Shown piece by piece: positions 26,052-26,710 of a stretch of DNA of 64,000 bases. Below the pieces are notes generated by a model. The model saw only the letters and a list, made by a program, of their open reading frames with translations, searched no databases and had not been told where the DNA came from. The translations under genes and the position numbers were made by a program. How positions within the stretch are numbered: position 1 is the first letter of the stretch; every line of letters starts with the position of its first letter. Source of the DNA: Candidatus Kerfeldbacteria bacterium CG_4_10_14_0_8_um_filter_42_10 (GTDB lineage: Bacteria > Patescibacteriota > Patescibacteriia > UM-FILTER-42-10); NCBI GenBank assembly GCA_002784945.1, contig PFMD01000024.1:17858-81857 (forward strand). The letters are read 5' to 3'.

Positions 26052-26246
26052 AAATAATGTATAATTAATAATTTATAATGTATAATGACATAAATCCTAA
26101 ATTCTCTCCAAAGGCATACTTCAGAGGTGCATCCGCTCGCCTCGCCGGCGAAGCGGGTCCATGGCGGAGATCTTTGCCTTAGGCGTGAGGAGTTTATGAT
26201 TTAATGCTTCAAAAAATTATACATTATACATTATTAATTATTAATT
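26052..26246. repeat. Inverted-repeat-flanked insertion between atpB and atpE (AT-rich ~35-bp arms around a ~130-nt GC-rich core)
   Basis: Arms ATAATGTATAATG...CATTATACATTAT pair perfectly over 13 bp; core begins with the motif AATCCTAAATTCTCT also found at 23247. Confidence 0.55.
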
Positions 26247-26316
26247 GGTTGATAACACCGACTCTAAATCCAAAAAACATAAGTCGAGTAGTTAAAAACC
26301 AAGAAAGGATATCGCT

Positions 26317-26529
26317 ATGGATTTATCCACTATTGCCAAAGCGTTAGCGATCGGCATTGGTTCCATTGCCCCGGCGCTAGCCATCGGTAAAATTGGAGCT
26401 AAAGCGATGGAATCAATTGGTCGCAATCCGGAAGCAACCGGCAAAATTCTGGTTCCTATGCTTCTGGCCGCCGCTTTTGCCGAAGCAATCTCCATTTACG
26501 CGTTGGTGATTGCCTTCAGCATCAAATAG
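26317..26529 (+). CDS. atpE: F0F1 ATP synthase subunit c
   Basis: 70 aa; two TM hairpin with GRNPE loop and conserved carboxylate helix; AGAAAGGA RBS. Confidence 0.9.
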
Positions 26530-26643
26530 TCCGATTATGGGCAAGAGGATTGGTTTAACCATTCCTCTTGAGATAATCTGATTATTAACAAATACAAAAT
26601 TCAAAATTTTGATCCTAAACAATCCTTTTAAGGCACAGTTTGA

Positions 26644-26708
26644 GAAATTAGAATTTGGGATTTGTAATTTGTTTAGGATTTAGAAATTAGAATTTGGGAT
26701 TTACAAAT
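26644..26708 (+). repeat. Tandem direct repeat 2x GAAATTAGAATTTGGGATTT (period 39) immediately upstream of atpF
   Basis: Two perfect 20-mers; related to the (A)ATCCTAAA/TTTAGGAT motif family. Confidence 0.6.
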
Positions 26709-26710
26709 AT

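Follow-up and report, generated by a model that had tools for sequence, protein, structure and literature searches.

A probable nested palindrome in the atpB-atpE spacer of a Candidatus Kerfeldbacteria ATP synthase operon and its likeness to small palindromic repeats

Correia elements are non-coding sequences of about 100-155 nt with inverted ends that carry promoter-like hexamers; they occupy intergenic or intercistronic positions, are co-transcribed, form hairpins and are cleaved by RNase III within mRNAs (PMC2649163, PMC10969869). ERIC (IRU) is an imperfect palindrome of about 127 bp found in transcribed intergenic regions, and where it inserts, adjacent mRNA segments can become more or less stable or transcript levels can shift (PMC10969869, PMC3184786). 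The subject here is a 199-nt unit (positions 26052-26250) that lies between the atpB stop codon and atpE in the F-type ATP synthase operon region of a member of Candidatus Kerfeldbacteria (candidate phyla radiation (CPR)/Patescibacteria), an uncultured groundwater bacterium. The stretch of DNA that was analysed, referred to as the window, is 64 kb long with a GC content of 43%, and with a further 6.6 kb beyond its left end the genome DNA examined came to ~70 kb. Kerfeldbacteria are CPR bacteria with genomes of about 1 Mb. To our knowledge few mobile elements have been reported for this group, and no description of small inverted-repeat elements from CPR bacteria came up in a literature search. 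Comparison of the sequences makes it highly probable that the unit is a nested palindrome, in which a GC-rich core was placed later in the loop of an older AT-rich hairpin.

The unit forms one long imperfect hairpin with a minimum free energy (MFE) of -67.9 kcal/mol (z -6.4), and none of 200 shuffled sequences folded equally well. The sense strand folds at -66.2 kcal/mol and the antisense strand at -56.2 kcal/mol, with six G-U pairs versus two; the same comparison for other hairpins built of short repeated words (see below) was mixed, without a general strand preference. The left AT-rich arm (26052-26087; forward strand, as are the features below unless noted) contains 4.9 copies of the heptamer ATAATGT at 26054-26087, as detected by Tandem Repeats Finder (TRF), and takes part in the inverted-repeat pairs I2, I5 and I9, and the right arm (26213-26248) contains 4.7 copies of the complement heptamer at 26214-26246. 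Because each arm is a heptamer array, the arms can pair in two registers, which an inverted-repeat scan placed at 26056-26086 with 26216-26246 (31 nt, 90%) and at 26063-26087 with 26222-26246 (25 nt, 96%). The arms enclose 129 nt in which GC rises to 0.59, compared with about 0.24 in the arms themselves; at its base the stem consists of AT-rich sequence, after which comes UUGGUUGAUAAC. A first-pass annotation, made from the sequence alone, had described a unit of ~195 bp whose arms pair over 13 bp around a 130-nt GC-rich core. The unit and its GC-rich core are there with slightly different lengths, and the arms do pair, but over a far longer extent than 13 bp. The locus is 99.9-100% identical and in the same orientation in 15 same-strain contigs that come from different samples and assemblers, and an assembly artefact is therefore ruled out.

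A scan for terminators found no terminator-like site at the unit on either strand, the unit not being a GC-rich stem followed by a U tract. The left arm includes three TATAAT hexamers. Whether the arms and the shared motif described below act as promoters could not be decided from the sequence, as -10-like hexamers are unavoidable in such repeats. A dif/Xer-like reading of ATAATGTATAAT was rejected: it agrees with a dif consensus at 17 of 21 positions, a level that AT-rich repeats reach easily, and a position within an operon is unfit for such a site.

The core is a GC-rich imperfect palindrome (26087-26212) of ~115-125 nt and ~59% GC that is non-coding and folds at -44.3 kcal/mol (z -2.7). 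Its left end, GACATAAATCCTAAATTCTCT (26087-26107; repeat family D17), is shared with 23244-23265, and its right end, GTGAGGAGTTTATGATTTAA (26185-26204), pairs with the left end in the MFE structures and resembles GCGAGGAAGTTTGG at about 23308-23321. Among open reading frames (ORFs) of 40 aa or longer, just one (26204-26347) overlaps the core, and it starts in the core's last bases; ATG-initiated frames within the core are 12-13 codons long by reading of the sequence, and no credible ORF was found within the unit.

The history of the unit can be approached through relatives, which were collected by means of AtpB and comprise Komeilibacteria, Kerfeldbacteria and other Patescibacteria. The atp regions compared came from eight species genomes, 80 metagenome contigs, L126 (AtpB 88% identical) and L127 (AtpB 71% identical). 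The atpB-atpE spacer of the window is 265 nt long. That of L126 is 153 nt and contains the same AT-rich arms with ~20 nt (ggcgtataaaaacgaaaccg) in place of the core, so that a short hairpin is formed (-26.9 kcal/mol, z -6.8); by alignment, the extra DNA in the window corresponds to about 26097-26211. The L127 spacer is 87 nt and has a short AT palindrome only. Among relatives in general the spacer spans 12-359 nt, and several relatives at about 60-71% AtpB identity have spacers of 73-90 nt with nothing core-like. Comparison of these spacers was a check that the first-pass annotation had set beforehand, and the core was found in none of 83 (L126 and 82 others); overall it is missing from L126 and about 90 more relatives. 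Since L126 has the arms around a ~20-nt loop without the core, the arms appear to be older and the core to have been added to the loop later. The core is thus very probably a gain in this lineage; its loss in L126 is a less likely alternative because all the other relatives are also without it. The annotation had regarded the whole unit as an insertion flanked by inverted repeats, of which the presence of extra DNA stands, whereas the arms belong to the hairpin seen also in L126 and only the core is new.

The two arms differ in how they compare with L126. Identity in the right arm is 87.5%, and in the left arm it is 61.5%, with an indel; third codon positions of atpB and atpE are 60-69% identical. 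The right arm looks constrained because its identity exceeds that of the third codon positions, and the left arm appears to track it in a way that preserves the pairing. Other species have a right-arm look-alike, AAAAATTATACATTWTACATTATWAATTATTAATT, once each in a different atp spacer (L127 5794-5828; L023 8862-8886). In L127 the atpA-atpG spacer consists mostly of a 35-nt stretch that is 94% identical to the right arm and ends just 5' of the atpG start codon, and in L023 a stretch similar to the right arm lies in the atpH-atpA spacer. Such right-arm-like sequences could be promoters or AU-rich RNase sites.

Searches of sequence collections yielded no relative of the core. Its 20- and 21-mers had no matches in viral and metagenome collections, although the metagenome collection, from which two scans recovered no contig of this strain, is evidently without it even though JGI contigs of the strain exist, and the zero says little. 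A blastn search of the core against phages and plasmids gave only chance GC matches of 27-33 nt. No match at the Rfam gathering score was obtained in the whole window, permissive Rfam searches gave chance-level matches only (25900-26800 searched at E up to 10, 22050-23450 at E up to 5), and a tRNA/tmRNA scan found nothing. The apical hairpin of the core was compared with a GC hairpin in the spacer of L168, and the 9-mer they share, GAGGTGCAT, was judged to be due to chance.

A second member of the element family lies at 23244-23345, in the same orientation as the core and 2.8 kb from it, within another lineage-specific stretch and ~65 nt upstream of the gene at 23410-24069. It opens with GACGATGAATCCTAAATTCTCT (23244-23265), which lies 145 nt upstream of the start codon of that gene and is a near-copy of the left end of the core, and the resemblance between the start of the core and a 22-mer upstream of this gene is as the first-pass annotation had it. 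In an alignment of 23236-23362 with 26080-26216 the left ends match at 21 of 23 positions, and the corresponding right ends are GCGAGGAAGTTTGG and GTGAGGAGTTTAT. The end patterns of the family are GAC(G)ATRAATCCTAAATTCTCT and GYGAGGA(A)GTTT. In both forward-strand copies the left end pairs with the right end, with AAATCCTAAATTCTCTCC pairing imperfectly (G-U pairs, bulges) with AGGAGTTTATGATTT, and pairing continues into flanks that differ between the copies. Outside the shared AATCC the paired flanks are GAUGA/UCAUC versus CAUAA/UUAAUG, different between copies and complementary in each, as is expected if each copy sits in its own palindromic context.

The upstream motif copy has an alternative partner, AGAATTTGGAGTT at 23155. 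It can serve as the 3' arm of a different hairpin (23140-23277) with a perfect 12-bp outer stem, TGGAAAAATTTA/TAAATTTTTCCA, plus AGAATTTGGAGTT/AATCCTAAATTCT; this hairpin alone folds at -40.5 kcal/mol, and the region 23140-23362 folds at -62.2 kcal/mol (z -3.3). Homology of the 23140-23277 hairpin to the core was considered and dropped as the alignment shows none beyond the motif, and the register 23244-23345 was used instead. A hammerhead-like reading of the GAUGA and GAAA in the same hairpin was rejected, there being no Rfam match of any kind.

The sequence common to the two left ends is a 15-nt exact intergenic match, which scores 15 under stringent scoring compared with 10.1 +/- 1.0 (maximum 13) in 200 shuffles, above all 200 of them; the second-best stringent match is in the atpE-atpF spacer. 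Exact copies of GAATTTRGGATT number five in the window versus ~0.03 expected, the expectation being our own estimate from base composition for a pattern picked post hoc, and the motif 13-mer at up to one mismatch has a single match in ~130 kb of relatives' DNA. When mismatches are tolerated more freely the signal is not significant, either in a whole-window count at up to three mismatches (10 observed versus 4.6 +/- 2.4 expected, reached in 5 of 100 shuffles) or in a lenient gapped alignment. The observation of the first-pass annotation that related words surround the atp operon was borne out, and the comparisons support a motif family that is real and specific to this lineage. No further copies of the element were found in the rest of the window or in the 6.6 kb beyond its left end. 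An exact motif 13-mer, GAATCCTAAATTC, is present at 13648-13660 inside a UvrD/PD-(D/E)XK helicase gene (~0.003 expected from base composition, again for a post hoc pattern) and is either a relic or a chance occurrence. The motif 16-mer gave ~100 single chance-level matches in viral contigs and was dropped.

The gene downstream of the second element (23410-24069) has 27% GC, no Pfam match and no relatives outside this organism, and it is absent from L127. In L127 (594-869) a STAS gene is followed by 275 nt and then a carbonic-anhydrase-like gene, and the counterpart in the window (22925-24128) is ~1 kb longer, the gain relative to L127 consisting of an extra 560-nt spacer and the 27% GC gene. 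L127 carries a different insert in the same spacer, and the interval between the STAS and carbonic-anhydrase-like genes looks like an insertion hot spot.

The operon into which the core appears to have been placed is a complete F-type operon on the forward strand. It consists of an atpI-like gene (24735-25142), atpB, which encodes F0 subunit a (25155-26051, stop codon 26049-26051) and is the 5' neighbour of the unit, atpE, which encodes the c subunit (26317-26529), and atpF (26711-27217), followed by atpH, A, G, D and C, and it ends at 32129. The ORF assigned to atpE matches PF00137, the one assigned to atpB has a product identical to one that matches PF00119, and the 100% match to AtpB in databases is ATP synthase F0 subunit A of Candidatus Kerfeldbacteria.

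Conserved hairpins lie on both sides of atpE and bracket the c-subunit cistron. The atpE leader hairpin (26259-26286), which is 3' of the unit and outside the insertion, consists of CGACU, an 18-nt A-rich loop and AGUCG. It is present in 22 of 84 loci, namely the window and 21 relatives (L016-L023, L126, L127, L133, L134, L137, L163, L174, L191-L194, L200 and L205), and has no counterpart in Rfam. The consensus is a 5-bp stem, NGACN/NGUCN, with a loop that begins with UUAAA and often ends with CC; the inner pair is G-C in 11 loci, U-A in eight and A-U in three, in sequences chosen by a pattern that requires pairing. In most loci the hairpin ends 22-36 nt before the start codon; in six the distance is 53-94 nt. 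Apparent insertions are seen in the hairpin loop of L132 and perhaps of L170. Identity to L126 is 86% in the atpE leader. The second hairpin (26531-26580), which is without a U tract, is directly 3' of the atpE stop codon. The atpE-atpF spacers of eight relatives, L126 and L127 show a counterpart, and the hairpin is 91% identical to that of L126, compared with 60-69% at third codon positions and 53% in the distal part of the same spacer.

That distal part appears to have been remodelled in the window. An AT-rich hairpin of 7-nt words (26588-26670; inverted pair I6, fold and TRF) bears the motif complement in its 3' arm, and a 39-nt tandem duplication of about 1.8 copies lies at 26640-26710 (family D7). 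AGAATTTGGGATT, which is the complement of the motif save for one transition, occurs in the duplication at 26650-26662 and 26689-26701. The first-pass annotation had reported a perfect tandem repeat of two 20-mers before atpF; a repeat is there, but it consists of identical 21-mers (26643-26663 and 26682-26702) whose starts are 39 nt apart, not of abutting 20-mers. By alignment, the duplication and the motif-bearing sequence are absent from L126 and L127 and occur in the window only, and the motif therefore marks DNA new to the lineage at all three loci. The motif complement before atpF would belong to the same recent remodelling as the core. What the atpE-atpF spacers of the window, L126 and L127 have in common is the post-atpE hairpin, TTATTAAC and a promoter-like site (TTGAGA/TTGAAA, 18-19 nt, TAAATT/TAATTT). 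The duplication overlaps a promoter-like TTGAGA, 19 nt, TAATTT that is also in L126 and L127, where the site ends 9-10 nt before the atpF start codon.

The reading preferred here, to which we assign a probability of about 0.5, is that the core is a small non-coding palindromic repeat resembling a MITE (miniature inverted-repeat transposable element), ERIC or a Correia element, and that it is co-transcribed with the operon and acts, if at all, as an RNA stem-loop. The core would be a copy of a small non-autonomous palindromic repeat that landed or was copied into the loop of a pre-existing hairpin, and the shared 15-mer would be the terminal stem sequence of that element, not a regulator site. 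Co-transcription would be expected because the unit lies between two same-strand genes of one operon and has no terminator-like site, and the mRNA would then carry, where its atpB part meets its atpE part, an extra stem-loop of high stability (about -66 to -68 kcal/mol). The likeliest effect would be RNA processing or altered stability of neighbouring parts of the mRNA through RNase cleavage, by analogy with Correia and ERIC elements, or the insertion may be neutral. The conserved 5' and 3' hairpins around atpE would be the layout expected if the c-subunit mRNA segment must outlast its neighbours. That the inserted core is a repeat element can be held with moderate confidence, and confidence in any specific function is low.

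Several points weigh against the repeat-element reading. The two full copies and some partial ones in ~70 kb all fall within 3.5 kb, whereas a transposable repeat should be scattered, and outside the shared ends the two full copies align weakly (z 2.0; 22 of 500 shuffles score equally well; about two thirds identity by count). There is no clear target-site duplication: at the atp copy AATCC...GATT has TA at either side, whereas 23244-23345 has TG and CT. Neither transposase nor integrase domains were found by Pfam scans of about 45 ORFs of the window. With only one relative as close as L126 found, gain of the core here and its loss there are not formally separable, and every statement made here about the function of the unit is one that we infer.

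Other explanations of the same features have to be weighed against the repeat element. The first-pass annotation had suggested that the motif copies are binding sites for a shared regulator, which would make them operators of one DNA-binding protein acting on the gene at 23410, atpE and atpF. Exact or near-exact copies do stand in three intergenic regions 5' of forward-strand genes, the paired copies start 96 nt apart (by reading of the sequence) at both 23155/23251 and 26093/26189, and a Trp-repressor-like gene is located about 9 kb away. Relatives that have the same operon and the same Trp-repressor-like gene lack the motif, however, and no candidate regulator could be linked to it. Moreover, all the copies lie in hairpin stems, a spacing of 96 nt between inverted copies would be an unusual operator layout, and the copies before atpF derive from the 39-nt duplication. 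These comparisons do not support the suggestion, and operator sites are a decidedly unlikely account of the motif. Somewhat less doubtful, though still unlikely, is that the GC core forms a small RNA gene of its own, transcribed in the sense direction from the TATAAT boxes of the left arm or antisense to the operon mRNA from TTAATA, 17 nt, TATAAT in the right arm. It would explain a GC-rich island with a stable fold in an AT-rich spacer and the similar layout at 23244-23345, and the minus strand offers a promoter-like site scoring 10/12 at 26244-26216 to set beside the three hexamers of the left arm. In arms made of ATAATGT repeats, -10-like hexamers are unavoidable, and a small RNA gene would further have to be reconciled with the lack of a terminator-like site downstream on either strand, the lack of an Rfam family match and the failure of the core to be conserved beyond this organism. 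A third possibility concerns the mRNA as a whole: the motif at 26093 could pair with its complements at 26650 and 26689 across ~550 nt, forming a stem that brackets atpE and from which a double-strand-specific RNase would free the c-subunit mRNA. The predicted duplex (-19.7 kcal/mol; 3 of 500 shuffles as good) is stronger than that with the local partner (-14.7 kcal/mol), and atpE is already flanked by conserved hairpins on its 5' and 3' sides. Against this, the motif is already paired locally within a hairpin of -68 kcal/mol, the copy at 23251 would have no role and relatives manage without the motif, which makes such a long-range stem very improbable.

Two further proposals address the palindromic form of the unit and are less credible still. 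The 31-nt inverted repeats that flank the 129-nt segment could be crossover sites at which a site-specific recombinase flips the core. Six of the 15 same-strain contigs (L007, L008, L010, L013, L014 and L015) start or end at or inside the unit, at 26047/26048, 26205 (twice), 26232 and 26250, as might be seen if the segment were invertible. The likely cause of these breaks, which fall in the arms, is low coverage of sequence with ~10% GC (about 4x according to the SPAdes contig names), with population heterogeneity as the alternative. All 15 contigs have the segment in one orientation at 99.9-100% identity, the scanned ORFs of the window contain no recombinase domain, and the core is nearly palindromic, so that flipping would change little; inversion is accordingly given only a slight chance. 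The hairpins were also compared with the guide-RNA units of TIGR-Tas systems, since TIGR stem-loop arrays, which have variable palindromic stems, are found in Patescibacteria/CPR (PMC12045711; bioRxiv 10.64898/2026.09.09.750476). Such systems have palindromic stems, two spacers of 8-12 nt, a ~9-nt loop, box C/D motifs, an array of several units and an adjacent tas gene encoding a Nop domain (PMC12045711). In favour of such a unit, the shared left end at 23244 contains GACGATGA. The units described here are single rather than arrayed, their interiors are 53-79 nt of structured GC-rich sequence instead of two 8-12-nt spacers, and Pfam scans of about 45 window ORFs, which left the giant surface-protein ORFs outside, found no Nop-domain (Tas) protein. 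A TIGR-Tas origin is the most far-fetched of the readings considered.

The AT-rich hairpin that holds the core is not an isolated structure. TRF and the inverted-repeat scan list six further features made of 7- or 8-nt arrays in same-strand spacers of the window: the inverted pairs 26590-26608 with 26672-26703, 29173-29194 with 29220-29238, 37433-37462 with 37463-37501, 40168-40206 with 40234-40264 and 48904-48933 with 48948-48981, and a single array at 12826-12869. In many relatives the same atp spacers hold hairpins of this sort that consist of different, unrelated words, and the arms of the unit are one case of a class of AT-rich intercistronic hairpins that recurs in this genome and in relatives. 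The words differ from spacer to spacer, yet some recur, such as those resembling CTAAAAAGCTAAGAAGCTA at 29220, 37475 and 12840 and in a spacer of L022. In the window, L126, L127 and L017, atpF is preceded by heptamers of the TGTAATT/TGAAAAT type, and the atpB-atpE spacer of L143 is filled with similar ones.

Other repeats were noticed in the window and its relatives. A 30-nt GC-rich double palindrome, TCCGCCCAAGGCGGATCCGCCTCTGGCGGA, lies in frame in atpA (28010-28039; L127 about 4620-4650) and again at 43354-43383 in a class II tRNA synthetase ORF (42814-44184), where it has the same orientation relative to the coding strand and encodes the same 10 residues. The insert in AtpA is common to L127 and absent from about 40 other relatives, and single-hairpin relatives of the palindrome are found at 6611 of the window and in the atpB-atpE spacer of L159. 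A 20-nt GC palindrome, CCTGCCTGCCGGCAGGCAGG, is identical in the atpB-atpE spacers of L136 and L170, which represent two different CPR lineages. TTCTAACGGGG is located directly 5' of promoter-like sites (TTGACA/TTTACA, 17 nt, TAAAAT/TATAAT) at 33068-33239, 48084-48219 and 22278-22320 (minus strand), one of which ends 6 nt before a start codon, a distance that suggests a leaderless mRNA. Inverted pairs of CCCGTTAGAA and TTCTAACGGG, with about 90-110 nt between them, stop 0-8 nt short of start codons (3618-3733; L130 about 7190-7295). A structured G-rich segment of ~110 nt that runs from AATCGTAGGGGGYTTGGGGGCGGCAC to GCCGCCCC is found at about 5565-5700 in the window and at about 745-850 in L127, at different loci and with about 80% identity by eye; it is followed by a hairpin with T-rich and A-rich arms (TTTTTGC / GCAAAAA-like), has no Rfam match and is a candidate non-coding RNA or mobile element. 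Finally, the window has two small stand-alone GIY-YIG nuclease genes (44159-44463 and 47868-48083). The first is associated with a perfect 19-nt inverted repeat, one copy of which (44177-44195) overlaps the 3' end of the gene and the other of which (44445-44463) is just 5' of its start, an arrangement that suggests a mobile cassette.

If the repeat-element reading is true, small palindromic repeats in an essential operon are tolerated, and may be used, even in a CPR genome that is symbiont-like and very small, and such repeats accumulate in layers upon older hairpins. A bolder and improbable extension would be that an undescribed Kerfeldbacteria family of small GC-rich palindromes homes to the loops of AT-rich intercistronic hairpins, and that the atp copy together with the complements before atpF forms a processing stem that sets the level of c-subunit mRNA. 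The locus is in any case a place to test whether the very unequal a:c ratio of ATP synthase subunits is set at the RNA level in CPR bacteria, a question to which the two hairpins that flank atpE also belong.

Compared with known systems, the core shares with MITEs its small size, its non-coding nature and an empty site in relatives (the L126 hairpin without the core, and 82 others), whereas scattered copies and a cognate transposase with matching ends were not found within the window and the ~70 kb. Correia elements (CREE/NEMIS) of Neisseria are similar in size class, inverted ends, intercistronic site and hairpin fold. They differ in that there is no sequence similarity and that they occur as many scattered copies with a TA duplication, where this locus has two close full copies and no clear duplication, and RNase III cleavage here is by analogy only. 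Like ERIC, the unit is an imperfect palindrome in a spacer that would be transcribed, that between the same-strand genes atpB and atpE, although ERIC copies number from tens to hundreds and follow a conserved consensus, compared with two copies in ~70 kb that are weakly alike beyond their ends. Rickettsia palindromic elements (RPEs) are small palindromes that spread in a reduced genome, which recalls the in-frame 30-nt palindrome in atpA and the class II tRNA synthetase gene; RPEs are 100-150 nt and often inside genes, however, whereas the unit lies between genes and has no sequence relationship to the 30-nt palindrome. REP/BIME sequences form intercistronic hairpins as well, which stabilise upstream mRNA, but in place of a GC-rich repeated consensus the outer hairpin here has AT-rich 7-nt words in tandem, which vary by spacer. 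IS1397 inserts into the loops of REP palindromes, an arrangement that resembles the nesting seen here, except that the inserted piece here encodes nothing. Elements of this kind are well known in other bacteria, and the one in the atp operon is a local, single-lineage feature with many precedents.

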